Assembly: GCA_041940025.1 (NCBI GenBank) | Contig: JBGTSY010000009.1 | Span: 9,110-73,109 of the forward strand | DNA length: 64,000 bases | Direction: 5' to 3' | From: Thiotrichaceae bacterium | GTDB taxonomy: Bacteria > Pseudomonadota > Gammaproteobacteria > UBA5859 | Shown here: positions 38,989 to 64,000 of the stretch, piece by piece | Numbering within the stretch: position 1 is the stretch's first letter | How the letters are laid out: each line of letters opens with the position of its first letter | The notes under the pieces: generated by a model | Told to the model about the DNA's origin: nothing | Databases searched by the model: none | What the model saw: only the letters and a program-made list of their open reading frames with translations | Translations under genes and position numbers: made by a program

Positions 38989-41900
38989 TGCGCATTGTGA
39001 TTGATATGCAGGGTGCGCAGACAGCCAGCCGTTTTCGTGGCATTGGCCGTTACACCATGGCTTTTGCTCAGGCTGTGGTACGGAACCGAGGCGAACACGA
39101 AATCATCCTCGCCCTCTCGGGTCTATTTCCTGAAACCATCGAGCCCATTCGCGCCGCCTTCGACGGCCTGCTGCCGCAGGAGAATATCCGCACCTGGCAC
39201 GCGCCCGGTCCGGTGCAGGAGGCGCAACCCGGCAACGATGCCCGGCGCGAGGCGGCGGAACTCATCCGTGAAGCCTTTTTGGCCAACCTCCAGTCCGATG
39301 TCATCCATATCACAAGCCTGTTCGAGGGCTATGTGGACGATGCCGTCACCAGCATTGGCCGATTTGACAGTGCAATGCCGGTGAGCGTCATTCTGTATGA
39401 CCTCATTCCACTGCTGAATCCGGATCACTATTTAAGACCCAATCCACGTTACGAACAGTACTACCTACGCAAGGTCGAGTGCCTCAAGAAGGCGGCGCTG
39501 CATTTGGCGATTTCAGAGTTTTCCGGTCGGGAGGGTATAGACGTCCTCGGTACACCCGACGGTAAAACCATCACCATCTCCACGGCGCTGGATAGTCACT
39601 TCCAAGCCAAAACCATCAGAGACGAAACCGCCAGTGAACTCCGTGCCAGGTTCGGCATCACCAGGCCCTTCGTGCTCTACACCGGTGGTGCGGATGAGCG
39701 CAAGAACCTGCCGCGCCTGATCGAGGCTTACGCCGCGCTGCCAGCAAGCATTCGCGAGACTCATCAGCTGGTTTTTGCAGGTCAGATGCATGAGGTTAAA
39801 ATCGCGCAGTTCAAACACCGTGCCCGTTCAGTGGGGCTCAAGGATGACGAACTCGTTTCCACCGGGTATGTCACTGATGAAGATCTCGTCCAGCTTTATC
39901 ACCTCTGCCAACTCTACGTCTTCCCCTCATGGCACGAGGGCTTCGGTCTACCGGCGCTGGAGGCCATGGCCTGCGGTGCGCCTGTCATCGGGGCCAATAC
40001 CAGCAGCCTACCGGAGGTGATCGGATTCGAAGAGGCGCTCTTCGATCCGTTCGATGTCGAGGCCATCAGCGCCAAGCTCACCCAGGCGTTGGAAGATGAA
40101 GCATTTCGCAATCGCCTGCATGAACATGGCAAGAATCAAGCGGAGAAGTTTTCCTGGGACGATACCGCCAAACGCGCGATTGCAGCGTGGGAGAGCATGC
40201 CAGGCCGGAGTCAGGCAGAGTATCTGGACCGATCACTGGCCCACAACCGGCTTCTCGCAGCGCTCGCAAAACCGCTCGCGCACGCAGGCGAGCCCGAGTT
40301 GGTGGCGGTGTCGCATTGCGTCGCGCAAAACGAACGGGCAGGCATCGAACGCCAGTTACTGCTCGATGTCTCCGAACTGTGCCAGCATGATGCCGCCCAA
40401 CGGTCCGAGGCCATGCTGAATTCCGTTATCAGTAGCCGCTCTTGGCGGATCACTAGGCCGCTGCAAAAACTGATGCAACTGTTCAAATGCTTGTTTAGGC
40501 TTCCCGTTCGAATGGTTGTCGGTATGGTGCGATTGCCCAAAAGGGTCGCCCGGTGGTTTTTGACAAAGCTCATTGCCTTTGTAATGCGGCTTGACGGGCT
40601 CAAGCATCGCGCCCGGCGATGGCTTTATCGCTATCCGAGGCTGGAGGCACATCTGCTTGCCTTCGCCAGGGCGTGCGAGTTGATTCATGATCCAACGCCT
40701 GCCCCGTCACATCCGGCGGAGGCCGAAACCCTCACACCCCGGGCGCGGCAGATCTATGAGGACCTGAAAGCAGCCATTGAGAAAAACAAACAGGAGGCCG
40801 CTTGATGCGCATTGTGATTGATATGCAGGGTGCGCAGACCGAAAGTCGTTTTCGTGGCATTGGCCGTTACACCATGGCTTTTGCTCAGGCTGTGGTGCGG
40901 AATCGCGGCGAACACGAAATCATTCTCGCCCTCTCGGGTTTGTTTCCCGAAACCATCGAGCCCATCCGTGTCGCCGTCGACGGCCTGCTGCCGCAGGAGA
41001 ATATCCGCATCTGGCACGCGCCCGGCCCAGTGCAGGAGGGACAACCCGACAACGATGCCCGGCGCGAGGCGGCGGAACTCATCCGTGAAGCATTTTTGGC
41101 CAGCCTCCAGCCCGATGTTATCCATATCACAAGCCTGTTCGAAGGCTATGTGGACGATGCCGTTACCAGCATTGGCCGATTCGACACTGCAACGCCGGTG
41201 AGCATCATTCTGTATGATCTCATTCCACTGCTGAATCCGGATCACTATCTCAAGCCCAATCCACGTTACGAGCAGTACTACCTGCGCAAGGTCGAATACC
41301 TCAAAAAGGCGGCTCTGCATTTGGCCATCTCCGAGTTTAGCCGTCAGGAGGGCATAGACGCCCTCGGTTCCGCCGACGGTAAAACCATCGCTATCTCCAC
41401 GGCGCTGGATAGCCACTTCCAACCCCAAACCATCAGTGACAAAGCCGCCAGTCAACTCCGCGAAAAATTTGGCATCACCCGACCCTTCGTCCTCTACACC
41501 GGTGGTGCGGATGAGCGCAAGAATCTGCCGCGCCTGATCGAGGCTTACGCCGCGCTGCCCGCCAGCATGCGTAAGGTCCATCAGTTGCTCTTCGCCGGCA
41601 GGATGCCTGAAGGCGATATTGCACGCCTCAAGGATATTGCCCGCACCGCAGGCTTAAAGAGCGACGAACTCCTGTTCACCGGTTACGTCTCTGACGAAGA
41701 TCTGGTCCAGCTCTACAATCTCTGCCAGCTCTACGTCTTCCCCTCGTGGCACGAAGGCTTCGGTCTGCCGGCGCTTGAAGCCATGGCCTGCGGTGCGCCT
41801 GTCGTCGGCGCCAATACCAGCAGCCTGCCGGAGGTGATCGGATGCGAAGAGGCGCTGTTCGACCCGTTCGATGTCGGGGCTATTACCGCCAAGCTCACTC

Positions 41901-42214
41901 GGGCCTTGGAAGATCAAGTATTTCGCAATCGCCTGCGCGACCATGGCCTGAATCAAGCGAAGAAGTTTTGCTGGGACGAAACCGCCAAACGCGCGATTGC
42001 GGCGTGGGAGAGCATGCCAGGCCGGAGTCAAGCAGAGTATCTGGACCGATCACTGGCCCACAACCGGCTTCTCGCAGCGCTCGCAATACCGCTCGCGCAC
42101 GCTGGTGAACCCGAATTGGTGGCGTCGTCGCATTGTGTCGCGCAAAACGAAAGCACTGGCATCGAGCGCCAGTTATTTCTTGATGTTTCCGAACTGTGCC
42201 AGCATGACGCCGCC
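38575..42214 (+). repeat. Tandem duplication of about 1.82 kb (38575-40397 and 40398-42214)
   Basis: 38914-40397 aligns with 40731-42214 at a constant 1817-bp offset with high identity. The leading ~335 bp of each unit is more diverged but shares the SEAML-SVISS-SWRIT motif. Confidence 0.9.
38985..40805 (+). CDS. GT4 glycosyltransferase fused to a methyltransferase-type C-terminal tail (chimeric)
   Basis: 'RIVIDMQGAQT..RFRGIGRY' and 'FVFPSWHEGFGLPALEAMACG'-type motifs. The C-terminus 'QRSEAMLNSVISSRSWRIT...LTPRARQIYEDLKAAIEKNKQEAA' parallels the upstream methyltransferase tail. Confidence 0.9.
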   Translation: MMRIVIDMQGAQTASRFRGIGRYTMAFAQAVVRNRGEHEIILALSGLFPETIEPIRAAFDGLLPQENIRTWHAPGPVQEAQPGNDARREAAELIREAFLANLQSDVIHITSLFEGYVDDAVTSIGRFDSAMPVSVILYDLIPLLNPDHYLRPNPRYEQYYLRKVECLKKAALHLAISEFSGREGIDVLGTPDGKTITISTALDSHFQAKTIRDETASELRARFGITRPFVLYTGGADERKNLPRLIEAYAALPASIRETHQLVFAGQMHEVKIAQFKHRARSVGLKDDELVSTGYVTDEDLVQLYHLCQLYVFPSWHEGFGLPALEAMACGAPVIGANTSSLPEVIGFEEALFDPFDVEAISAKLTQALEDEAFRNRLHEHGKNQAEKFSWDDTAKRAIAAWESMPGRSQAEYLDRSLAHNRLLAALAKPLAHAGEPELVAVSHCVAQNERAGIERQLLLDVSELCQHDAAQRSEAMLNSVISSRSWRITRPLQKLMQLFKCLFRLPVRMVVGMVRLPKRVARWFLTKLIAFVMRLDGLKHRARRWLYRYPRLEAHLLAFARACELIHDPTPAPSHPAEAETLTPRARQIYEDLKAAIEKNKQEAA

Positions 42215-44479
42215 ACCGGTGTCCAGCGGGTGGTGCGGAGCTATCTGAGATATTTGTTGCAGTCTCCTCCCGCCGGGTTTCGAGTAGAGCCGGTTTTTGC
42301 GACACGTGAGGAGGGCTATCGTTATGCCCGCCATTTTACCCTGCGTTTCCTGGGCCTGGACGCGAGCGCCGCTGAGGATGCGCCCGTTGTCTGGCACAGA
42401 GGCGATGTTTTTTTCGGCCTCGACATGCAGCACCATGTGCAGTTGGCGCATGTACCTTTCTATCGGCAGCTTATTAACGAAGGTGTTGTGGTCAAATTTC
42501 TTATTCACGACCTGCTCCCAATTCAGCTTGTCGACCTGTTCAAGGACTCGGACGGCAAAGAACTGCACGAGCAGTGGCTGGCCATGATCGCCGCCACCGA
42601 TGGTGCGATTTGTGTTTCCAAGGCCACCGCCGATACTTTCGAAGCCTGGCTCGCTGAGCATGCCGTCCCGCGATCGCCAGACTTTCATACCCGTTGGGTA
42701 CACAACGGGGGTGATATCGATGGCTCCAACCCCTCTCGCGGCCTGCCGGACGATGCACAGGCGGTGCTGCGCACCTTGCGCGAACGCCCCACCTTTTTGT
42801 GCGTCTCCACTATCGAACCGCGCAAGCGGCAACAACAGATCCTCGAAGCAGTTGAACAACTCTGGCAGCACGGTGACGATGTCAATCTGGTGCTCGTCGG
42901 CAGGCAGGGTTGGAAGACCGAATCTCTCGTTGAGCGACTGCGGACCCATCCCGAGAAGGGGCGCCGCCTGTTTTGGCTCGAAGGCATCAGTGACGAATAT
43001 CTGGACAAGGTCTATGCTGCCAGCACCTGCCTGATTGCCGCCAGCCTCAACGAAGGCTTCGGTCTCTCGCTCATAGAGGCAGCACGACACGGAATTCCCA
43101 TCATCGCACGCGATATTCCGGTGTTCCGCGAAGTCGCCGGCGACCATGCCGATTACTTCCAGTGTGAATCCGCACAAGACCTGTCTGACTTCCTTCGCAT
43201 TTGGTTGGAAAAATATCGCGCCGGACAGCACCGGCCCTCCACCGGTATGCCCTGGTCCACATGGCAACAAAGTACCGAGAAGCTCAAGGTGGCTCTGATT
43301 GGGCAAAATTACCCGCGCCGCCAACTGCTGGTGGATATCTCCGAACTGGTGCAACGTGATGCCAGAACGGGCATCCAGCGCGTCGTACGTAATATCCTGA
43401 AGGAGTGGTTGCTCAACCCACCCAATGGTTATCGCGTCGAGCCGGTCTATGCCACGGTGGACCAGCCGTACCGCTACGCGCGCAGCTTTACCGCGAGATT
43501 CCTTGGCATTCCAGCAAATGTTCTACGGGATGAGCCCATAGACTACGCTGCCGGTGATGTCTTTCTAGGACTCGATTTGCAGCCTCAGGTTGTCGCTGCG
43601 AAACGAGCGTTTTATCAGGCATTACGCCGGCAGGGAGTTAGGGTCGAATTCGTTGTCTACGATCTGTTGTGTGTGTTGATGCCGCAGTATTTTGTCCCGG
43701 GGGCAGCAGACGGATTCACACCCTGGTTGGAGGTCGTTGCCGAGAGCGACGGTGCCGTGTGTATCTCGCAATCTGTCGCCGGGGAACTTGACGATTGGGT
43801 CGGCAAGAACAGCCCTGAGAGACAGCGCCCCTTCAATATCGACTGGTTTCATTTGGGGGCAGAGTTCGATCACTCACACCCCACCAAAGGCCTGCCATTA
43901 GATGCGGAGTTTACTCTGGCCCGGCTTCAATCGCGGCCAACCTTCCTTATGGTGGGTACTCTCGAACCACGTAAAGGCCACGCGCAAGTACTCGATGCCT
44001 TCGAACAGCTCTGGCAGTCAGGTGCAGATGTTAATCTGGTCGTCGTGGGTAAGCAGGGTTGGATGGTCGAGCAACTTGTCGGAAGACTCCACGCTCATCC
44101 CGAGCGGGACAAACGTCTCTTCTGGCTCGAAGGCATTAGCGATGAATACTTGGAAAAGGTCTACGCCGCCAGCACCTGCCTCATCGCTGCCTCCTACGGT
44201 GAAGGCTTCGGCCTGCCGCTCATCGAAGCGGCGCAGCACAAATTGCCCATCATCGCCCGGGATATTGCTGTATTCCGCGAGGTGGCGGGAGAGCATGCCT
44301 GGTATTTCGATGCGGCTTTACCTGAGGAACTGGTCCATTCGGTGAAATCCTGGTTGGAACTATATGAACGTGATGCACATCCGAGGTCGGAATCCATGCG
44401 GTGGCTGACGTGGAAGGAAAGCGCCAGTCAGGTATTGAGAAACATCCTTCCGAGTGTTCGTGGGTCGCACACTAGTTGA
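40802..44479 (+). CDS. Three-domain GT4 glycosyltransferase (WbdA-like polymerase candidate)
   Basis: 1225 aa with three EGFG(L/P)-x-EA motifs. Domains 2 and 3 are related ('RQL..D.SEL...DA.TG.QRVVR', 'EPRK', 'LEGISDEYL.KVYAASTCLIAAS'). Confidence 0.9.
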   Translation: MMRIVIDMQGAQTESRFRGIGRYTMAFAQAVVRNRGEHEIILALSGLFPETIEPIRVAVDGLLPQENIRIWHAPGPVQEGQPDNDARREAAELIREAFLASLQPDVIHITSLFEGYVDDAVTSIGRFDTATPVSIILYDLIPLLNPDHYLKPNPRYEQYYLRKVEYLKKAALHLAISEFSRQEGIDALGSADGKTIAISTALDSHFQPQTISDKAASQLREKFGITRPFVLYTGGADERKNLPRLIEAYAALPASMRKVHQLLFAGRMPEGDIARLKDIARTAGLKSDELLFTGYVSDEDLVQLYNLCQLYVFPSWHEGFGLPALEAMACGAPVVGANTSSLPEVIGCEEALFDPFDVGAITAKLTRALEDQVFRNRLRDHGLNQAKKFCWDETAKRAIAAWESMPGRSQAEYLDRSLAHNRLLAALAIPLAHAGEPELVASSHCVAQNESTGIERQLFLDVSELCQHDAATGVQRVVRSYLRYLLQSPPAGFRVEPVFATREEGYRYARHFTLRFLGLDASAAEDAPVVWHRGDVFFGLDMQHHVQLAHVPFYRQLINEGVVVKFLIHDLLPIQLVDLFKDSDGKELHEQWLAMIAATDGAICVSKATADTFEAWLAEHAVPRSPDFHTRWVHNGGDIDGSNPSRGLPDDAQAVLRTLRERPTFLCVSTIEPRKRQQQILEAVEQLWQHGDDVNLVLVGRQGWKTESLVERLRTHPEKGRRLFWLEGISDEYLDKVYAASTCLIAASLNEGFGLSLIEAARHGIPIIARDIPVFREVAGDHADYFQCESAQDLSDFLRIWLEKYRAGQHRPSTGMPWSTWQQSTEKLKVALIGQNYPRRQLLVDISELVQRDARTGIQRVVRNILKEWLLNPPNGYRVEPVYATVDQPYRYARSFTARFLGIPANVLRDEPIDYAAGDVFLGLDLQPQVVAAKRAFYQALRRQGVRVEFVVYDLLCVLMPQYFVPGAADGFTPWLEVVAESDGAVCISQSVAGELDDWVGKNSPERQRPFNIDWFHLGAEFDHSHPTKGLPLDAEFTLARLQSRPTFLMVGTLEPRKGHAQVLDAFEQLWQSGADVNLVVVGKQGWMVEQLVGRLHAHPERDKRLFWLEGISDEYLEKVYAASTCLIAASYGEGFGLPLIEAAQHKLPIIARDIAVFREVAGEHAWYFDAALPEELVHSVKSWLELYERDAHPRSESMRWLTWKESASQVLRNILPSVRGSHTS

Positions 44480-44521
44480 GTCGCAGAAGATTGAACAAGA
44501 TATTAAAGGAGTGAAGTTCAA

Positions 44522-53746: not shown

Positions 53747-54985
53747 CTATATCAGTTTGGCATTTCGATAACTATAAAGAGAGGGGATCGCGGCGACAGT
53801 AACAGAGACGGCGATGATGGTCAGCAATAGATAGAGACTGTTTCGCGAAAACATATCCACTTCGACATGCACGCCAAATTGAGAGATAAAATAGTCTTGG
53901 AATAGCGTCAGGCAACCAGTGAGCACGGTTGCTGCGAGCACACAACTGACAATAGTAATGAGCAGTGCTTCTAATTCTATTAAAAAGAACAAAAATGATG
54001 CCGGCGCACCGATGACTCGAAGCAGCAAAGTTTCCTGTTGACGCTCACGAATTGAGGATAGCAACATAGCGCTGACGCCTAAACAGGCGGCCATAAAGAC
54101 CAAAGCAGAAACCAGTAGCAGAGTGTTTTCCAGAATGCGCATCATTTGCCAGAGTTCAGTGATCACCACTCCGGGGAGAATGGCAGTCAAAGGTTCGTCA
54201 GCGAATTCGTTTATCTGTCGTTGCACCCCAAAAGTCGCCATTTTGGATTCAAGTCCTAACATGATTGCGGTGATACTCTGGGGTACCAGTGTGTGGTGGT
54301 CAACCTTAGGCCGGTCGTGTCGACTATTCGTAGCCGTGACGCCTGGTGTCCAGTCTAGGTGTATGGCCTCAATGCCTTCTAGGCTGACATGTAACGTTTG
54401 ATCAACGGGCGTGCCGGTAAACGCTAATATACCGACTACAGTAAATGGGAAATCATCGTGTCTACTGAAGCTGGTATCAGCCATGCCATGAGAAAGCGTG
54501 AGTTTGTCACCTAATTGGTAGCCAAGTTGTTTCGCGGCTTCGTGGCCCAACACCACCTCAAAGGGATCCTTAAATGTTTGGCCTTTATCGAACTCCAATT
54601 TGCGCTGTTTGCCATAACTGAACTGTTCAAAATAATCAGTTGTGGTGCCTAAAACACGATAGCCTCGATGTGAATCCCCAAGAGAAATTGGGATGGCCCA
54701 CTTGACTTGATTACTGTTGGCAATAGTTTGGTATGTTTCCCAGCTTATATTGTTGGTAGGCGCGCCAATTCGAAACACGGAATACAACAGCAAATTAAGG
54801 CTTCCCGTTCTGGCCCCAACCACCAGATCAACGCCTGAGACAGTATTGGAAAAATTATCTTTTGCTTGATGGCGAATATGTTCGACTCCCAACAATACAA
54901 AGATACTGACCGTCATTGCGATGAGAGACAACGACACAGACCCCTTACGATCGAGCAGGCTTTTCACCGCGAGCCTGGTAAACAT
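53747..54985 (-). CDS. ABC transporter permease, FtsX/MacB-like (ZrgC-like)
   Basis: 'GVDLVVGARTGSLNLLLYSVFRIG', 'IPISLGDSHRGYRVLGT', 'GTPVDQTLHVSL'. Confidence 0.9.
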   Translation of the reverse strand: MFTRLAVKSLLDRKGSVSLSLIAMTVSIFVLLGVEHIRHQAKDNFSNTVSGVDLVVGARTGSLNLLLYSVFRIGAPTNNISWETYQTIANSNQVKWAIPISLGDSHRGYRVLGTTTDYFEQFSYGKQRKLEFDKGQTFKDPFEVVLGHEAAKQLGYQLGDKLTLSHGMADTSFSRHDDFPFTVVGILAFTGTPVDQTLHVSLEGIEAIHLDWTPGVTATNSRHDRPKVDHHTLVPQSITAIMLGLESKMATFGVQRQINEFADEPLTAILPGVVITELWQMMRILENTLLLVSALVFMAACLGVSAMLLSSIRERQQETLLLRVIGAPASFLFFLIELEALLITIVSCVLAATVLTGCLTLFQDYFISQFGVHVEVDMFSRNSLYLLLTIIAVSVTVAAIPSLYSYRNAKLI

Positions 54986-55668
54986 CAGGCAGCCCCTTCC
55001 AATTGGTTAATCTCGTTTAATGATTTAACCTGTTTAAAATAGGGTGAAAGGGACATATCGTGACTGACAAATACTAAAGTCATACCGGTGTCCGCAACAA
55101 CAGACATTAATAGTTTTAAGAATTCCTCTTTATTAGACGCATCCAAAGATGAAGTCGGCTCATCTGCAATGAGCAGTTGTGGTTTATTGATAAGTGCACG
55201 TGCTATCGCTATCCGTTGCTGTTGTCCGATACTTAAGTGACGAGTCTGACGATGCCAATCTTTTTTTGGAATGTTTAATCTACTTAGCAGAGATTGAATG
55301 TCCTGGTTGCTTGGCGTTACTTTTGTGTGTTTGGAAAACCGACTTGCAAGCTGGGTATTTTCAATTGCGGTGAGATAGGGTATCAAATTAAATTTCTGGA
55401 ACACATATCCTATGTGTTCCGCTCGAAACCGATCTCGCTGTCTCGGGGTCATGATATTCAAATGCTTGCCAAAGACTGTCACCTGTCCCTCGACCGGCAC
55501 AACGAGTCCGCTTATCAATCCTAGCAAAGTAGATTTACCGCCTCCAGAGGGTCCATAGATAAAAATGCGTTCCCCTTCTTCAATGGACCAAGAGGGAATA
55601 TTCAACACTATGTGGTTCGGGTGATTCGGGTAATAAAATTGCAGATGACTAAGTTCTATAGCCTTCAT
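54985..55668 (-). CDS. ABC transporter ATP-binding protein (ZrgB-like)
   Basis: 'GPSGGGKSTLL', 'LSIGQQQRIAIARAL', 'ADEPTSSLD'. Start chosen at ATG 55668. Confidence 0.92.
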   Translation of the reverse strand: MKAIELSHLQFYYPNHPNHIVLNIPSWSIEEGERIFIYGPSGGGKSTLLGLISGLVVPVEGQVTVFGKHLNIMTPRQRDRFRAEHIGYVFQKFNLIPYLTAIENTQLASRFSKHTKVTPSNQDIQSLLSRLNIPKKDWHRQTRHLSIGQQQRIAIARALINKPQLLIADEPTSSLDASNKEEFLKLLMSVVADTGMTLVFVSHDMSLSPYFKQVKSLNEINQLEGAA

Positions 55669-55780
55669 AGTGTCATTTAACTCTACAGTAAATGTCTCGA
55701 ATATCCGGTGGAGCCCGGAAATAATACATTGTATCATTGGTTGTCTGAACCACATACTCATATGTCATTAATCCAAGGCC

Positions 55781-56395
55781 ATGAAACACACATTGACACG
55801 AATATTCATTTTCTTGTTCACCTTGAACCTGGTTGCCTGCGACAAGCTACAGTCTGATCGTGCAAATGAAGACAAACAGGTTGAAGCGCAGCAAACAGAT
55901 CAGGAGTACAAAACCATTGAGTGGTTTGATCTGATGCCACAAGAAGACATTGACGCAATACTCAATCCGCCAGACTACATAACAGAATTGGAGGATGGCT
56001 TTCTTGAAGACCAAATAAGCAATCAGATTAGTAATGCGATTGCATTGGCTAAAGATGATCCCTACCAGCGGGCATTGGTGTCAACAAAAATCATTCCGGA
56101 AATGAATGGCCAGGCGATTCGATTACCCGGATTCATCGTTCCGCTTGAATTTGATGAAGAGCAATTGATTACTCAATTTTTCCTTGTCCCTTATTTTGGT
56201 GCCTGTATTCATGAGCCACCGCCACCACCCAATCAAATTATCTTCGTCAACTATTCTGCTGGGCTACAACTGGATGCGCTATATGAGCCTTTTTGGATTT
56301 CAGGAGTTCTGGCAACCACTTTAGTGGAAAATGAAACTGCTACCGCAGCCTATAGCATGCAGATGGATTCCTACGAAGTTTACTATGAGTATTAA
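55781..56395 (+). CDS. DUF3299 lipoprotein (ZrgD-like)
   Basis: Lipobox 'LVAC', 'WFDLMP', 'LPGFIVPL', 'VPYFGACIHEPPPPPNQII'. Confidence 0.88.
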   Translation: MKHTLTRIFIFLFTLNLVACDKLQSDRANEDKQVEAQQTDQEYKTIEWFDLMPQEDIDAILNPPDYITELEDGFLEDQISNQISNAIALAKDDPYQRALVSTKIIPEMNGQAIRLPGFIVPLEFDEEQLITQFFLVPYFGACIHEPPPPPNQIIFVNYSAGLQLDALYEPFWISGVLATTLVENETATAAYSMQMDSYEVYYEY

Positions 56396-56468
56396 TCAAT
56401 TTATCTTATTCGCCGACAGCAAAATAATTATTGAGCAGGAGGGTCACCCCGACACTTGACGCGGATTA

Positions 56469-56894
56469 TTACGACACAAGATTCTTTTCATCATCGCAAT
56501 CACAGGATGCTTGTTTGTGCTGATGACACAGTCGATAGTTGAATCCGTGCCCAATAGCGATTAAAGCTGCGCCTAATACAGTTAGCGGTTTTTCACTCAC
56601 TTCGCCGATACCGGTTCCTTCCAATAGCAGTGCAGTGATTAACATAGCCAATCCAGTGATACCTAAAATGAGTAATCGATATCTTTTATGTTGTCTACAT
56701 CCTAAGGTGAGGGCATACACGCTGGTAGGAATCACGGCAATTATCATCCAAAGATGAAAGGCTTCATTATCCAGGGGTAACGCCACAGCACTCGGCAACA
56801 CTACCAATAACATCGGGAGGGCCAGGCAATGCAGCGTACACACCATGGATAATCCAATGGCGACTTTATCTGTTAAGGCTACTGTAGTCTTCAT
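56469..56894 (-). CDS. MerC-domain membrane protein
   Basis: 'DKVAIGLSMVCTLHCLALP', 'GCRQH', 'GH..N...C'. Confidence 0.85.
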   Translation of the reverse strand: MKTTVALTDKVAIGLSMVCTLHCLALPMLLVVLPSAVALPLDNEAFHLWMIIAVIPTSVYALTLGCRQHKRYRLLILGITGLAMLITALLLEGTGIGEVSEKPLTVLGAALIAIGHGFNYRLCHQHKQASCDCDDEKNLVS

Positions 56895-57374
56895 TGTTTA
56901 GTATTTTTTTGCTCTAATTGTGCTTCAGCAAAACATAGGTCGCACACATTTCATTTCTATTTGCCCACTGATTTGCCTAAAGCCCGCTTTTCGAACCGTT
57001 TTTTGAAGGTCGGAGTGAGTGGAGGCTTTGATGGTGATTTCTTTGACTTTGTGACAACTGCTGCAAATTAAGAATTGCGGTACCCCATGTACATGATCAC
57101 AACTAATGTGTGAACAGGCAACATACTTATTAGCAAGTTCGAGTTTATGTACTAAAGATTCTGTTTCTAAAAATTCTAGTATTCGGTACACCGACATCGC
57201 AGGAATATTGGCATCGTAGCGTTCTTTGCAACTATCGATCAACTCATAAGCAGAAAGCGCTTTGTCAGAATGAATGAGGCTAGATAATACCTGTTTGCGC
57301 CTTTCTGTTAGGCGCACACCATGGGTGTGACACTGCTTTTCTGCCTGTTCCAGGATTGTGTCTATTTGTTTCAC
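56891..57374 (-). pseudogene. zur: Fur/Zur-family repressor with a C-terminal frameshift
   Basis: 'RLTERRKQVL', 'AYELI', 'SVYRILEFL', 'HKLELANKYVACSH', 'FLICSSC'. The current frame stops at 56925 (MKCVRPMFC*). Adding TG restores MKCVCDLC...KQ*, ending at 56891. Confidence 0.75.
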
Positions 57375-57961
57375 GATATGGATCCAAATTTAATCACCCG
57401 GTTTTTAGGAGTCAGGGTTGTTGAGCCTTGTTGTGAAGCAGAAACCCACATGGCTTTTATGCGGTGAATCTTTGGAAATCTATCAAACAACTTAACCGTA
57501 ATCGCAGATAGTTCAGAAAGTTGATTACAATGGTAGCGGTAAGTGACGGTGATTTCACTGTGACTATTATCGGCGTTCTGCTGAGGGTGGTCGTGTGATT
57601 TAGAATGATTGTGTTTCTCTTTATTATCACTCCCGTCCCTAAGCGATAAAAGATCTGTCTGGGTGTGAGTGTGCTGACAGTCTCCTCCTAAAATTGACAC
57701 TATACCCCTGTGATCTTGAAGCTGTTCTAAGGCAGATTCGACTGCTTGAATATCAGTGCTAGATTGAGCAGGGTGCTCAAAACCCACAATATCAATCGCT
57801 GGGGACTTTAATTGAGCCTCAATCGTTTTTCCCTCCATGGCTATGGTAAGTACGGATAGACCATGAACGTGGGCATCGGCACTGGCTAGAGCCTGGCTGG
57901 CATGAACACTTAGGGTAAAGAGGAGCGCTAGGGTTCTAAGTTTAGATATTCGAATGTTCAT
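57371..57961 (-). CDS. DUF2796 periplasmic zinc-binding protein (ZrgA-like)
   Basis: 'AHVHG', 'SPAIDIVGFEH', His-rich loop, 'HSEITVTYRYHC'. Confidence 0.88.
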   Translation of the reverse strand: MNIRISKLRTLALLFTLSVHASQALASADAHVHGLSVLTIAMEGKTIEAQLKSPAIDIVGFEHPAQSSTDIQAVESALEQLQDHRGIVSILGGDCQHTHTQTDLLSLRDGSDNKEKHNHSKSHDHPQQNADNSHSEITVTYRYHCNQLSELSAITVKLFDRFPKIHRIKAMWVSASQQGSTTLTPKNRVIKFGSIS

Positions 57962-59094: not shown

Positions 59095-60450
59095 ATGTGT
59101 GTGATGGAAGCTGTTCCCAGTAGGCCAATACTACTAGCGGTGTCGAATTCGATAAGTGATGACGTTCGATGCAAATTATCAACCGTATTTAAAAATAGTG
59201 AATTGATTATCGATGATCCTTTAGATGAGAATAACTGCGGTCGTCGGATCAGTTATTCTTGGGGGTTTATTTATGTTCCCACTCATTTAGATAGTGCTTG
59301 GATCAGCTGGTCACGAAACCTGTTTCGGAGCAAGGTAGCTCGAAACTGGATTGCAATGTTAGAAGATGTGTTTACCGTCAACGAGCAAAAGTATCAATTC
59401 CTGTCAGTTGACACGATGGGCTACATTCAAATATTCGACGCCCTATCCGATAATTTATTTTCTGCAATCATCACACCCTGGGAACTAAATACCACAAAAA
59501 AGGAGGTTTCCCTTGGTGCCTTGGTAGGAAGAAGTGCCTCCATCGCAAGAGTCAACGAACTCATTGTGAGATTCTCCAAAGTGGATAGTCCTGTCATTTT
59601 GTCCGGAGAAACAGGAACGGGCAAAGAGCTTATCGCAAGAGAGCTTCATCGACGATCACACTACTGTCAGGGGCCTTTCATCGCTTTAAATTGTGGTGCG
59701 ATTCCAGATGAATTATTTGAAGCGGAAATGTTTGGCTACGTTGCCGGAGCATTTACAGATGCAAAAACTGATCGGGAGGGCTGGTTACAGAAAGCGCATA
59801 AAGGTACCCTATTTTTAGATGAGATCGCGGAGTTGTCACTGCGTAGCCAAGCGAAGTTGCTGCGGGTGTTAGAACGAAAAGCCGTTACGCCGATAGGTAC
59901 AAATCAATCATTTGATTTAGATGTGCGTATAGTGGCCGCCTCACATGTTGATTTACGGCAGGCGATAGTGGAAAAGAGATTCCGGGAAGATCTATTCTAT
60001 CGGCTAGATGTGCTACACATCCAAGCACCCCCGCTGAGAGAACGTAGTGAGGATATTTTATTACTTGCATCAAATATATTGAGGCAGTTATGCAACGAAT
60101 TAAATCTTCCTGTACGTCAAATCTGCTTCGAGTCACTGTTTATTCTCACATCCTATACGTGGCCGGGAAATGTGCGAGAGTTAATCAATAAATTGAAGCA
60201 AATTTGTATCTTAAGTGACGCATTGGTACTAGAAGCAAAGCATCTAGAAATTTTTGGATTACCGACATTTGCTCTCAACCAGTTCAACTCAGTACCTCTT
60301 CTTGATACGGCAATATCACGCGCAGAACTCAACGCGGTGGCTGAAGCACTAAGTGCGACAGGAGATAACATCTCAGCATCTGCGCGTTTATTGGGTGTTT
60401 CCCGAATGACTCTTTATAGATTAATTAGAAAACACAAAATCATTTTGTAA
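59095..60450 (+). CDS. Sigma54-dependent enhancer-binding activator (atypical N-terminus, AAA+, Fis-type HTH)
   Basis: Walker A 'GETGTGKE', 'GAFTDA', Walker B 'LFLDEI', 'FREDLFYRL', 'WPGNVREL', HTH 'NISASARLLGVSRMTLYRLI'. Confidence 0.93.
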   Translation: MCVMEAVPSRPILLAVSNSISDDVRCKLSTVFKNSELIIDDPLDENNCGRRISYSWGFIYVPTHLDSAWISWSRNLFRSKVARNWIAMLEDVFTVNEQKYQFLSVDTMGYIQIFDALSDNLFSAIITPWELNTTKKEVSLGALVGRSASIARVNELIVRFSKVDSPVILSGETGTGKELIARELHRRSHYCQGPFIALNCGAIPDELFEAEMFGYVAGAFTDAKTDREGWLQKAHKGTLFLDEIAELSLRSQAKLLRVLERKAVTPIGTNQSFDLDVRIVAASHVDLRQAIVEKRFREDLFYRLDVLHIQAPPLRERSEDILLLASNILRQLCNELNLPVRQICFESLFILTSYTWPGNVRELINKLKQICILSDALVLEAKHLEIFGLPTFALNQFNSVPLLDTAISRAELNAVAEALSATGDNISASARLLGVSRMTLYRLIRKHKIIL

Positions 60451-60833: not shown

Positions 60834-60848
60834 TGGCATGAATTTCGC
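60834..60848 (+). promoter_or_regulatory. Sigma54 (-24/-12) promoter
   Basis: TGGCATGAATTTCGC has exact GG-N10-GC spacing and lies 40 bp upstream of ATG 60889. Confidence 0.7.
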
Positions 60849-60888: not shown

Positions 60889-61656
60889 ATGAAACCGGTA
60901 TTATCCATCACGGTATTCCGTAGTGCGATTACAGATCTTAACAATCTGAGTCACTCGAAATACCTAGTTGTGTTGTTCTGCTACACGATTCTAGCTAGGA
61001 CTGTTCTAGCCGGATCTGACGTCCCAACATCTCAATTATCTCCCGCTAGCCATGACACTCTCACCACTTTAGTCACTCTCGTTGGTGCAAATACCACAGC
61101 CAGTAGCCACACCAGTCGTATCGAAGGCGATTCGTTTTCCGGGGTGAGCGGTATCGTAGAAGTCAATGTCACCGGCGGTGATCTTTCCATTCAACAAAAT
61201 TCAGCTGCCATTGTGGAATCCAGTGCCTACGGATTGGCATTCGTAGAGGCCTATCAGAAACGACAAGTAGACGAGCTTAGTCGATCAACAACCAATGGGA
61301 TGCGGTCGGATGCAGCGATAAAAGATAATGCATTTGACCATGCACTCGGATTGATCATGGTAAACCAGTCCAGTGGTGGTGAGAACACTCAAGTAAATGG
61401 TGCCGCTATCGCCTTAGGAGGGCTGGTAGCTATTGGCGGCGTGCAGCTAAATGACAACACCTTGGACCAATCCTACGGTATTGCAACACCGATCTCCGCA
61501 GGGGTAGGTGACGGAGGCAGCGTGAATAACGTTGATACGACCACGATTGACCCGAGCAGTTTTACCGGCGCCAGAGGTATTTTTCTAATTAATCAAGTAT
61601 CGGGTAGAAACAATTACTCGGGCAATAGTTTTACTCTGACTACGTCTCCTAAGTAA
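60889..61656 (+). CDS. FapB-like amyloid nucleator/minor subunit
   Basis: Hydrophobic N-terminus and three imperfect repeats: 'SRIEGDSFSGVSGIVEVNVTGGDLSIQQNS', 'AAIKDNAFDHALGLIMVNQSSGGENTQVNG', 'TTIDPSSFTGARGIFLINQVSGRNNYSGNS'. Confidence 0.75.
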   Translation: MKPVLSITVFRSAITDLNNLSHSKYLVVLFCYTILARTVLAGSDVPTSQLSPASHDTLTTLVTLVGANTTASSHTSRIEGDSFSGVSGIVEVNVTGGDLSIQQNSAAIVESSAYGLAFVEAYQKRQVDELSRSTTNGMRSDAAIKDNAFDHALGLIMVNQSSGGENTQVNGAAIALGGLVAIGGVQLNDNTLDQSYGIATPISAGVGDGGSVNNVDTTTIDPSSFTGARGIFLINQVSGRNNYSGNSFTLTTSPK

Positions 61657-61742: not shown

Positions 61743-63563
61743 ATGAAATGCAAACGTTTACCTTTAGCTATTGCAGTTGCAAGCGCGATGGGCGCAGGTG
61801 TGGCAAGTGCAGACGAAGGCAATAGAGGTGACTACGAAAAGAGCAATATTCACATCGATAAAGATGTGGATGTAACCCATGAACTGCACCACAAAGGAAA
61901 GATCTATACGGCAGGAGTCGTCTTGGTGGATTCCACGGCAACGGCATTGTCTGAAGTGGAACAAAAGGTGAAGGAAAATACGTTATCTGAACAGCAAATG
62001 TTCATTGAGCCCAATTCTGAGAATCCTGTTGTGATGTTTGGAGGCAGTGTTGACGATCAAAACAGCGCTACTTTGTCTGGTAATGTGTTAAAAGGCAGTA
62101 CAGGTAACGCGGGCGTTAATATCGTTGGTGGTTCCACCAATGCTCAGCAAAACTCTGTTTCTATCGCAGAAGGCGATTCGCGCGGGCATGTAGTGGACAT
62201 ACCAATTGAGTTCAGTACTAGTGAAACCTTCAAAGACAATTACAGCGATTCAGAAACCTGGAGCACGGAGTCTTGGGATAACCACCAAGTGACCCATACC
62301 TCAGATACTGCCACCAGTAGCAGCAGTAGTTCGTTAAGCGTAGAGTTGGATATCGACGAGCATGGCGGCATGATCAATGCTGACGTGGGCGGCGCTACAA
62401 CTGTCGATGCAAGCGCGGAAGCGGGAGACGGTGTTGGGCCGGAAGGGCAGATCTCAAAATCAGTTGAAGGTAATGTCAATGGTACGGTAGAAAACAGCTA
62501 TGTGTCTGTGCAAACTTCTGGCGAATTTGACAGTAACATTGGAGGCGATGCGCACAGTGGAGAAGGTAGCAAAGATCTAAACTCTGTTTCTGCTGCGGGC
62601 GAGTTTGAGACAGATTCGAAGCTATACGTCGAGGATGGATCCATCTCCTACATGGTCGAGGGAGAAGATGAGCAATCTTGGGAAAGTGACTCCACACACA
62701 CAGATGGTACTGTCTCTGTAACGGATGGTGAGTCGTCTACCGAATATGTGGATGAGTCTGACTACTCCTTTAATACTGAGTTTGATATCAATCTGATGTT
62801 CGGTGGGGCAGCAGAGGCCGAAACCTTTGCCAAACAGAAAGTCGCATATAACCAGAATCCTTCTTCTGGATACAATATTGCTTCAATCTCCGATGACGTG
62901 GCAATGAATTTTAGCGGAAACATTGGAGTCAATGTGGTTGCTGGGCACAACAACGCTCAAGCTAATCAGTTAGCACTTGCTGAAAATGATGGGGTAATGG
63001 CTTTAGCGACTGCAACCTCTTATCAATCTGTTTATGGGAATGTCTCACAAGGTCAAGGCTATATCGCAGTTGTGGATGAAGAATATTCACTATCTGGTGA
63101 TGTCGATGGCTATACTGTTGGTTACTCAGATCAACTGGGCGATGTCTATCCAGACACATGGGAAGGCAAACCTGGGCCTAACCCACATCCGACCATCGGA
63201 AAAATGATTGGCCACAATGACATCGATAGCGATACTCAAGGTGCGCAACAAGTGGTGGTTATGGCCAATGGTACACAGAAAGTAGTACAACGTGGGTATG
63301 TATTACAACCGGGCGAATACTATCTCGCTGAAGGTGGGGCCTACGTTTACAAAGAAGTTGGCGCTGTAGACTTAGGTGAAGTCACCTTGTCTGGTACCCT
63401 CAAGCATCTTGATATTGTTGAATATCAGGTTGTAAATGATGCGTCCATCTCTGGCAATGCTTTCATGGGAGCGAAAGGCAATATCGCTGTTAACGTTGCT
63501 TCTGGTAGCGGTAATGCGCAAGGCAATGCTTTGGCTATTTCAAGCATGAATGCGCCAGAATAA
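61743..63563 (+). CDS. FapC-like major functional-amyloid subunit with very long linkers
   Basis: Signal peptide and three ~37-aa repeats (N.A.(L/I)S.....(S/K)GN(A/I)(G/A)VN(I/V)..G..NAQ.N) at about 62055, 62871 and 63432. Strong RBS (gaggag). Confidence 0.8.
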   Translation: MKCKRLPLAIAVASAMGAGVASADEGNRGDYEKSNIHIDKDVDVTHELHHKGKIYTAGVVLVDSTATALSEVEQKVKENTLSEQQMFIEPNSENPVVMFGGSVDDQNSATLSGNVLKGSTGNAGVNIVGGSTNAQQNSVSIAEGDSRGHVVDIPIEFSTSETFKDNYSDSETWSTESWDNHQVTHTSDTATSSSSSSLSVELDIDEHGGMINADVGGATTVDASAEAGDGVGPEGQISKSVEGNVNGTVENSYVSVQTSGEFDSNIGGDAHSGEGSKDLNSVSAAGEFETDSKLYVEDGSISYMVEGEDEQSWESDSTHTDGTVSVTDGESSTEYVDESDYSFNTEFDINLMFGGAAEAETFAKQKVAYNQNPSSGYNIASISDDVAMNFSGNIGVNVVAGHNNAQANQLALAENDGVMALATATSYQSVYGNVSQGQGYIAVVDEEYSLSGDVDGYTVGYSDQLGDVYPDTWEGKPGPNPHPTIGKMIGHNDIDSDTQGAQQVVVMANGTQKVVQRGYVLQPGEYYLAEGGAYVYKEVGAVDLGEVTLSGTLKHLDIVEYQVVNDASISGNAFMGAKGNIAVNVASGSGNAQGNALAISSMNAPE

Positions 63564-63660: not shown

Positions 63661-64000
63661 ATGTGCATATCGAATCGAAACATACATCCGGCGACAGTTT
63701 TATTGTTGCATGCGGCTCTGTTGGTCTGTCTGTCGTTTAGCTTAAGTGCAGAAGAGTCAAAAGACTCTCAGGTTGTCCTATATCACCCTTCTGGTTTTGG
63801 TGTGGAGACCAAATCAGTGGTGAGTATGCGTGATAATAAATTCGACAATCTAGTAGAACAACAGTTTGATTTTAGCTGTGGCGCCGCTGCAGCCAGCACT
63901 ATCCTACAGTACGCCTATAATATGAATGTGACCGAGTTGGATGTCATTATGGGATTATCTAAGGTGGCTAATACCGACATTGCGAAACAGAAAGGGTATT
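63661..64000 (+). CDS. C39-family peptidase (FapD-like), truncated by the window end
   Basis: Open frame from ATG 63661 with a signal-like N-terminus, then 'VEQQFDFSCGAAAASTILQY', the C39 catalytic Cys motif. Not in the ORF track because there is no stop in the window. Confidence 0.85.
   Translation, partial: MCISNRNIHPATVLLLHAALLVCLSFSLSAEESKDSQVVLYHPSGFGVETKSVVSMRDNKFDNLVEQQFDFSCGAAAASTILQYAYNMNVTELDVIMGLSKVANTDIAKQKGY

Follow-up and report, generated by a model that had tools for sequence, protein, structure and literature searches.

A conserved polyanionic insertion in the first linker of a divergent FapC-type amyloid subunit

A 64,000-nucleotide stretch of contig JBGTSY010000009.1 from a Thiotrichaceae bacterium (the window; GenBank assembly GCA_041940025.1, positions 9,110 to 73,109 of the forward strand) encodes a fapC-like major amyloid subunit of 606 amino acids (aa), with a net charge of -66 and an isoelectric point (pI) of 4.13 (61743..63563, + strand). 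Alignment with classical FapC proteins shows that this subunit carries a strongly acidic insertion of 200 aa, wedged exactly between the end of its first amyloid repeat and the canonical linker-1 motif. The insertion recurs across a clade of related subunits, where its charge and length persist over greater evolutionary distances than its sequence does. The reading that we favour, and to which we give about half of our belief, is that the insert coats the fibre as a largely disordered polyanion and, ahead of export, holds the subunit in a soluble, unfolded state.

The family assignment was tested against FapC (Pfam PF27129, FapBC; NCBIfam NF058558). The 606-aa open reading frame (ORF) matches PF27129 and, over two stretches, the NCBIfam FapC model (E 5.5e-28), and a profile of the clade aligns with all three repeats of the FapC UK4 structures in the PDB (9nqd and 9u4u, E ~1e-17). 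A Foldseek search of the full predicted model against the PDB gave no match at E <= 0.001, with FapC UK4 (9u4u) ranked second as a weak hit (E 0.3, TMt 0.37). The protein contains three FapBC repeats with the GN.G.N..AG..N.Q.N core, and its gene is the second FapBC gene of the operon, ahead of fapD-fapE-fapF. On the full contig (L001) the gene order is sigma-54-dependent activator, fapB-like, fapC (606 aa), fapD, fapE and fapF, with NCBIfam matches to C39_FapD (1.7e-68), FapE (5.8e-16) and FapF (2.2e-96), and this synteny is kept in more than 30 loci. Three features of FapC are lacking, namely an NCBIfam score at the equivalog level, a fapA gene at the head of the operon and a short linker 1. 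Because its score of 98.6 bits lies below the cutoff of 195, the protein is regarded as a divergent member of the FapC family and not as the Pseudomonas equivalog; the FapB-like protein, FapC, FapD, FapE and FapF of this contig all score under their NCBIfam equivalog cutoffs. The absence of fapA does not exclude membership, since loss of this gene is a common deviation, recorded in 6 of 16 genera (PMC3792158). Judged by these sequence features, the ORF is a FapC-type fibre subunit within a fap operon.

A hidden Markov model (HMM) of the repeat finds exactly three copies, which sets linker 1 at 230 aa and linker 2 at 146 aa. A probable Sec signal peptide, read directly from the sequence (MKCKRLPLAIAVASAMGAGVASA, before DEG; 61743..61811, +), opens the protein. 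FapC is exported via Sec and FapF and forms cross-beta fibrils that resist SDS and formic acid; for the present protein, what can be seen is this signal-peptide-like N-terminus and, in the AlphaFold model, an all-beta core. Repeat R1 (aa 105-145; 62055..62177, +) has 64% mean identity to homologues and is modelled with a predicted local distance difference test score (pLDDT) of 74-88. It is followed by the acidic insert proper (aa 146-345, 200 aa, net charge -38; 62178..62777, +), which is absent from classical FapCs. The canonical linker-1 segment comes next (aa 346-375, EFDINLMFGGAAEAETFAKQKVAYNQNPSS; 62778..62867, +; pLDDT 64-85), aligned with the 27-aa linkers of the short-linker clusters P0079-P0090, and then repeat R2 (aa 376-416; 62868..62990, +; pLDDT 80-91). 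Linker 2 (aa 417-562, net charge -13; 62991..63428, +) is mostly modelled as beta structure and leads into repeat R3 (aa 563-603; 63429..63551, +; pLDDT 83-88).

The first-pass annotation of this DNA had described an acidic insert of about 230 aa at 62169-62870, between repeats 1 and 2. This holds for linker 1 as a whole, which is 230 aa long, and the acidic insertion accounts for 62178-62777; the last 30 aa of the interval are instead the canonical linker 1. Classical FapCs carry DASFAFGMADAEVFVDQ in a linker 1 of 25-27 aa, and the same motif is found here at aa 346-375 as EFDINLMFGGAAEAETFAKQ. Common to both is the pattern '..SF.FG.AdAE.F..Q', and nine residues of aa 346-375 are invariant (D348, F353, G354, A359, E360, T361, F362, Q365 and N370). 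Since short-linker FapCs share this motif, the true insertion comprises aa 146-345.

The composition of the region is as strongly biased as had been proposed, dominated by D, E, S, T and G with few basic residues. Across aa 143-376 (62169-62870) there are 49 acidic residues (23 D and 26 E) against seven basic ones (6 K and 1 R), with a net charge of -42 and a pI of 4.05, and S, T and G together make up 36%. D/E amount to 20% of the insert and K/R to 3%. As a local background, the 36 ORFs in the 64 kb that are 200 aa or longer supplied 187 windows of 200 aa, whose mean charge was -5.4 (sd 8.2). The most acidic window of the fapC ORF reaches -41, the lowest among all long ORFs, and the next most acidic ORF reaches -24.

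A census of linker-1 lengths, biased towards relatives of the query, yielded 91 protein clusters. Linker 1 measures 159-262 aa in 78 of these, mostly 203-218 aa, with P0075 down at 159 aa, and 25-27 aa in twelve classical FapC clusters. All 78 long linkers are acidic (D/E 12-24%, K/R 0-8%, net charge -15 to -46). An acidic long linker 1 was also found in 17 further species-representative genomes, 16 of them at 203-232 aa and the last being the gammaproteobacterial metagenome-assembled genome (MAG) 640_Coassembly_bin.24 (L024). The FapC of L024 (8001-10268) stands at the extreme of the trend, with 755 aa, an S/A/D/E-rich low-complexity linker 1 of 491 aa and net charge -81, and a linker 2 of just 50 aa. 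Hosts of long linkers include 'Thiotrichaceae bacterium UBA5859' (82% identical), Porticoccaceae, Pseudomonadales and other gammaproteobacterial MAGs, together with a cultured strain, Maricurvus nonylphenolicus KU41E. Whole proteins of the long-linker clade average a net charge of -64, compared with -35 for the short-linker matches. The first-pass annotation had proposed comparing linker length and charge across homologues, with a common insert free of charge bias speaking against its idea of a polyanionic domain. The insert itself proved common among homologues; because those that possess it always keep the charge bias, the idea is not refuted.

The insert evolves faster than the core while its composition is kept. 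Mean identity to homologues is 35% in the insert compared with 61-67% in the repeats, and nonsynonymous divergence (dN) from the UBA5859 orthologue amounts to 0.139 for the insert as against 0.02-0.09 for the core. Relative to synonymous divergence (dS), the insert has a dN/dS of ~0.06 in the same comparison, a rough value with dS saturated (1.5-4.4; undefined for the N-terminus). This ratio, rough as it is, indicates that the insert is under purifying selection. The insert is homologous to those of the Porticoccaceae type, with shuffle-controlled Smith-Waterman z scores of 12-20 to relatives that are ~50% identical over the whole protein. In distant subclades the alignment of the insert falls to z < 2.5, yet its position, length class and acidity persist. 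Since these subclades keep charge and length without recognisable sequence, these are the most deeply conserved properties of the insert. When the insert by itself was searched with phmmer against 1.84 billion representative proteins, a sole match was returned, the closest FapC relative (78% identical). This search is insensitive for so biased a sequence, because clade members with Smith-Waterman z scores of 12-20 were missed, and within its sensitivity the module appears absent from other protein families. Origin by duplication was also considered, and comparisons with the repeats, linker 2, the N-terminus and FapB, as well as a search for internal repeats, all gave z <= 1. A separate comparison with FapE (L001:12684-13457) gave a Smith-Waterman score of 58 against 35.7 +/- 5.3 in shuffles (z 4.2), which is borderline after ten comparisons.

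AlphaFold2 was run on the monomer as the full protein (alignment of 59 sequences) and as a crop containing R1, the insert and R2 (18 sequences). In the full run, R1, the canonical linker 1, R2, most of linker 2 and R3 were modelled as beta structure with a pLDDT of 70-90, and residues 151-352 fell below 50 (~26). The cropped run produced no fold for the insert (pLDDT ~30). At 0.19 net charge per residue, the charge-hydropathy boundary between disordered and folded sequences stands at 0.482; the insert, with a mean hydropathy of 0.420, falls under it and plots with disordered sequences, and all other segments plot with folded ones. A comparison of the profile over the insert region with the PDB gave a weak match to RspB (3v10, E 0.2), which was treated as compositional. 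The low confidence of the insert in both AlphaFold runs, set against a confidently modelled amyloid core, agrees with the earlier proposal that the fibre core displays the acidic segment, and suggests that the insert lies outside that core. The insert shares two properties of a fuzzy coat: the lack of a confident fold together with low hydropathy and high net charge, and fast sequence change with composition kept. Free length variation without conserved motifs, a further such property, is not seen (203-232 aa in the main subclade; 159-491 aa in the wider clade).

Taken together, these results are consistent with a model in which the insert forms a polyanionic coat. Each repeat of Pseudomonas FapC forms one Greek-key layer, and three layers stack within the subunit (PMC12822426). 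FapC linkers are viewed as an exposed 'fuzzy coat', with longer linkers giving a softer fibre periphery (PMC12392863; PMC3792158). In the subunit described here, the stacked cross-beta core would be built from the three repeats together with the canonical linker-1 segment and a large part of linker 2, and the insert would remain outside it as a largely disordered, highly hydrated and negatively charged coat. As each subunit adds three 4.8-angstrom layers in the UK4 structure (PMC12822426), the insert would contribute ~40 extra negative charges per ~1.4 nm of fibre. Fap substrates pass through FapF unfolded (PMC5557850), and FapC fibrillation is affected by net charge, which ranges from -0.1 to -14 in Pseudomonas FapCs (PMC11787515). 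Before assembly, high net charge and low hydropathy could keep the periplasmic subunit soluble and unfolded, fit for threading through the FapF barrel. After assembly, the insert would set the surface chemistry of the fibre through electrostatic repulsion and hydration, soften its periphery and give it a high cation capacity. Its short segments of alternating hydrophobic and acidic residues may adopt transient or conditional beta structure.

The operon context is relevant to the proposed role before export, FapA being a disordered anti-aggregation chaperone (PMC12822426). No + strand ORF of at least 60 aa is present in the 440-bp gap between 60450 and 60889 ahead of fapB. No recognisable fapA was found in any long-linker operon examined, though FapA is hard to detect in classical operons too, where 3 of 10 candidates match and none reaches the cutoffs. 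In operons without the FapA chaperone, the insert could serve as an in-cis brake on premature aggregation. A hidden short FapA was considered and rejected: ORFs of 83-96 aa occur 5' of fapB in four loci, and these are Arg-rich, match no FapA model and look spurious. They align across frames, a sign of conserved DNA rather than protein.

Several observations weigh against a purely disordered coat. The monomer predictions, built on 18-59 sequences, are blind to structure that forms only between stacked subunits. The first-pass annotation had noted an alternating, beta-strand-like pattern in the linker, and this was borne out: the period-2 hydrophobic moment of the insert is 1.155 compared with 0.80 +/- 0.08 in 2000 shuffles (z 4.4), and across 78 homologue inserts the mean z is 2.6, with z > 2 in 79%. 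Alternation of this significance points to beta strands. In the main subclade the motifs TIDIDFS, HLDVDLDVDD, GEFDADIGGD and FVAGGLLGIEDGTIDYGVAG are at least 80% conserved and length is nearly fixed at 203-218 aa, a degree of order that exceeds the needs of a pure entropic spacer. The link to FapA is also open to another explanation, as fapA is absent from some short-linker operons too (for example L034 from Shewanella, and L023). Its absence from long-linker operons may simply track phylogeny, which confounds the association.

The same alternation, motifs and near-constant length would be expected if the insert were ordered in the fibre, its amphipathic strands stacking in register or packing on linker 2 as an extra cross-beta wing that widens the core, and being disordered only in monomer predictions. 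Low-confidence hairpin strands at residues 243-263 and 285-293 recur in both AlphaFold runs, AlphaFold3 predictions for PAO1 and Pf-5 show beta structure in their long linkers (PMC12392863), and FapC with linkers only still fibrillates (PMC12822426). Such a wing would, however, stack in-register ladders of Asp and Glu amounting to ~40 charges per subunit, unless counter-ions neutralise them. The insert is modelled at a pLDDT of ~26-30 compared with 70-86 for linker 2 of the same protein, and its hydropathy falls under the folding boundary. Its sequence is lost across subclades, and L024 has 461 aa of S/A/D/E low complexity in its place. On balance an ordered wing is considered unlikely, though it is an alternative to be taken seriously.

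Specific binding of Ca2+, Mg2+ or a transition metal could alternatively be the primary selected function, either through a cation-gated switch from disorder to order or by making the fibre surface a sink or a nucleator of mineral. Polyanions of such charge density bind divalent cations, and the insert combines 20% D/E with acidic faces on its alternating strands and a charge that is conserved even where the sequence has diverged. Generic counter-ion binding, on the other hand, needs no selection. No metal-binding family or motif was matched in the insert: a Pfam scan gave no match at E up to 1, direct reading found no GGxGxD nonapeptide periodicity of the RTX beta-roll type, and the conserved '...EDGTIDYG...' segment carries non-acidic residues at positions 1, 3 and 12 of an EF-hand loop. 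The zinc-uptake cluster that adjoins the locus is not kept beside fap elsewhere. To judge from record titles, the clade comes from marine, wastewater and other MAG collections, which offers no single ionic setting. We consider selection for specific cation binding to be physically plausible but rather improbable.

A related proposal combines the two roles, with the insert acting as a built-in, cation-responsive regulator in place of FapA. It would block nucleation electrostatically while the subunit is unfolded; once at the cell surface, the Asp/Glu faces of its amphipathic strands would be neutralised by divalent cations, and it would condense as an ordered outer layer. We hold this to be doubtful. 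If it were true, fibre assembly and mechanics would depend on ionic conditions, and the protein would be an amyloid with an intramolecular, environment-gated switch.

The first-pass annotation had further suggested that the insert blocks aggregation until it is cleaved by the C39 peptidase, which would make it a pro-segment excised by FapD during or after export to release an aggregation brake. The position of fapD directly downstream of fapC, the habit of C39 peptidases to cut after GG or GA (PMC5557850) and the presence of GG dipeptides in the insert (HGG, VGG and IGG, with FGG near its end) are compatible with this proposal. Excision of an internal segment would nonetheless require two cuts, and the halves of the subunit would come apart. 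Peptides from Pseudomonas UK4 span the whole of FapC, indicating that it is not processed, and FapE and/or FapF are the suspected FapD substrates (PMC5557850). The FGG at the edge of the insert is part of the canonical linker-1 motif and is found in FapCs without the insert, where its second G is not conserved, and the N-terminal edge of the insert shows no conserved leader context of the canonical double-glycine type. Release by FapD is thus not upheld and is judged very improbable. A clade-specific double-glycine cleavage site between NLMFGG and AAEAE was likewise rejected, as FapCs that lack the insert have F.FG..dAE.F as their canonical linker 1.

Finally, linkers are the most variable part of FapC (PMC3792158), and both the runaway S/A/D/E expansion to 491 aa in L024 and the deletion to 159 aa in P0075 would fit a neutral low-complexity expansion tolerated outside the core with no function of its own, an explanation that is hard to credit in view of the dN/dS of ~0.06 against the closest orthologue (rough, dS saturated), the alignment z scores of 12-20 to relatives ~50% identical over the whole protein, the conserved motifs of the insert and an acidic bias kept in 78 of 78 clusters.

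The second linker was described in the first-pass annotation as about 150 aa long and carrying GDVYPDTWEG..HP...GH.D.D..QGA, and both points are confirmed. The motif, DQ.GDVY.D.W..HP..GH.D.D..QG, occupies aa 463-501 (63129..63245, +), where the columns from D463 to A501 are near-invariant; of 91 homologues, 79 contain D.[YFW].D.W and 88 contain GH.D.D. It also occurs in FapCs with a short linker 1, for example in Methylophaga and Marinobacterium. AlphaFold assigns a pLDDT below 50 to aa 462-491 despite this conservation. The conserved His/Asp-rich loop of linker 2 is a better candidate than the acidic insert for a site of specific binding or metal coordination.

Upstream of the fap genes lies a gene for a sigma-54-dependent transcriptional activator (59095..60450, +; Pfam Sigma54_activat 4.4e-63, AAA_lid_14 and HTH_8), which is found at the same position in nearly all related loci. 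A candidate -24/-12 promoter element for sigma-54, TGGCAT-N5-TCGC, was read from the sequence 40 bp 5' of the fapB ATG (60834..60848, +); the match is weak, with 3 mismatches to the 16-nt consensus. Elements resembling TGG[CT]A-N6-[TC][TC]GC are present 5' of fapB in 11 of 18 long-linker loci, this contig counted. The fap operon of the long-linker clade is probably under the control of sigma-54 and this activator. In three loci (L004, L006 and L008) the ~250 bp of DNA 5' of fapB is conserved, as seen from cross-frame tblastn matches of spurious small ORFs, and probably represents a promoter or 5' untranslated region.

The fapB-like gene encodes a minor or nucleator subunit of 255 aa (60889..61656, +; NCBIfam FapB 1.3e-11, below the curated cutoff; precomputed match to PF27129, FapBC). 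This is long for FapB, and the FapC-derived repeat HMM detects only two repeats in it. In loci of the Porticoccaceae type, FapB carries a mildly acidic linker of 95-96 aa between the detected repeats. Downstream of fapC, the 5' part of fapD, encoding the C39 cysteine peptidase, extends from 63661 to the window end at 64000 (+) and the gene runs past it.

Directly 5' of the fap locus, at ~54000-57961, is a zinc-uptake cluster of the Vibrio type, comprising ZrgA, a FUR-family regulator, a MerC-like protein, DUF3299, an ABC ATPase and an FtsX/MacB permease. A functional link between fap and this zrgA/zur cluster was rejected, as the cluster lies beside fap in no other locus examined. A link to the downstream YHS and TerC genes was rejected as well, as these recur only in the closest relative (L003). 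Elsewhere in the window, the region ~36000-44500 has a G+C content of 56-58% compared with ~45% in the remainder, and encodes a Wzm/Wzt ABC-2 polysaccharide exporter, an FkbM methyltransferase and GT4 glycosyltransferases of 606 aa and 1225 aa. It is probably a horizontally acquired O-antigen or glycan cluster. An Rfam scan of the whole window returned no match.

FapC is one of two model bacterial functional amyloids and is under development as an engineerable nanomaterial. Experiments on FapC have been done with Pseudomonas proteins, which have a short linker 1 and whose variation is confined to linker 2. The clade described here reveals a second site, right after repeat 1, at which a polyanionic module of 200 aa (up to 491 aa) is both tolerated and conserved, and at which it raises the net charge of the subunit about four- to five-fold. 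This is a natural insertion site for cargo display on Fap fibres, and the clade lends itself to testing how nucleation is governed by charge and flanking disorder without the FapA chaperone. Maricurvus nonylphenolicus KU41E provides a cultured entry point. Earlier papers already describe FapC linkers that vary from ~30 to 260 aa and put forward the fuzzy-coat idea; a conserved clade with a long linker-1 module, its extreme charge and its co-occurrence with fapA-less operons are undescribed in the searchable literature, in which no paper was found to link FapC with Porticoccaceae, Maricurvus, Cellvibrionales or Thiotrichaceae.

Compared with known systems, the subunit resembles Pseudomonas FapC (UK4 9nqd/9u4u; PAO1, Pf-5 and F1) in its three imperfect Asn/Gln/Gly/Ala-rich repeats of ~40 aa with the GN.G.N..AG..N.Q.N core, its canonical linker-1 motif, the fapB-fapC-fapD-fapE-fapF order and an acidic overall charge. 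It differs in a linker 1 of 230 aa as against 28-34 aa, since in Pseudomonas only linker 2 varies (35-259 aa; PMC12392863), and in a net charge of -66 as against -0.1 to -14 (PMC11787515), as well as in the missing fapA and an NCBIfam FapC score of 98.6 against 195 bits. At 1821 nt the gene falls outside the range of 700-1600 given for three-repeat fapC in GTDB, the 'residues' of that paper being taken as nucleotides. The closest parallel in form is linker 2 of P. putida F1 FapC (259 aa), likewise a long, poorly predicted non-repeat segment described as a 'fuzzy coat' and thought to lie outside the core or loop back, softening the periphery (PMC12392863; PMC12822426). Compared by description only, the long segment is in linker 2 there and in linker 1 here, and F1 FapC is much less anionic, with a net charge from ~+20 at pH 4 to ~-20 at pH 9 (PMC11787515).

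Two further analogies concern how the insert may work. The acidic tail of alpha-synuclein modulates aggregation and binds Ca2+. As a polyanionic disordered segment outside the fibril core, this C-terminal tail forms a fuzzy coat that mediates interactions (PMC7736610). The insert is not homologous to it, is internal rather than terminal and spans 200 rather than ~45 aa, and synuclein is a eukaryotic, cytosolic protein. The role proposed for the insert, holding FapC back from premature fibrillation, is that of the disordered periplasmic chaperone FapA, although FapA is a separate protein that acts in trans and has no sequence similarity to the insert; the substitution of one by the other is conjectural. 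The insert is an unusual variant of the known Fap system and not a new kind of system.

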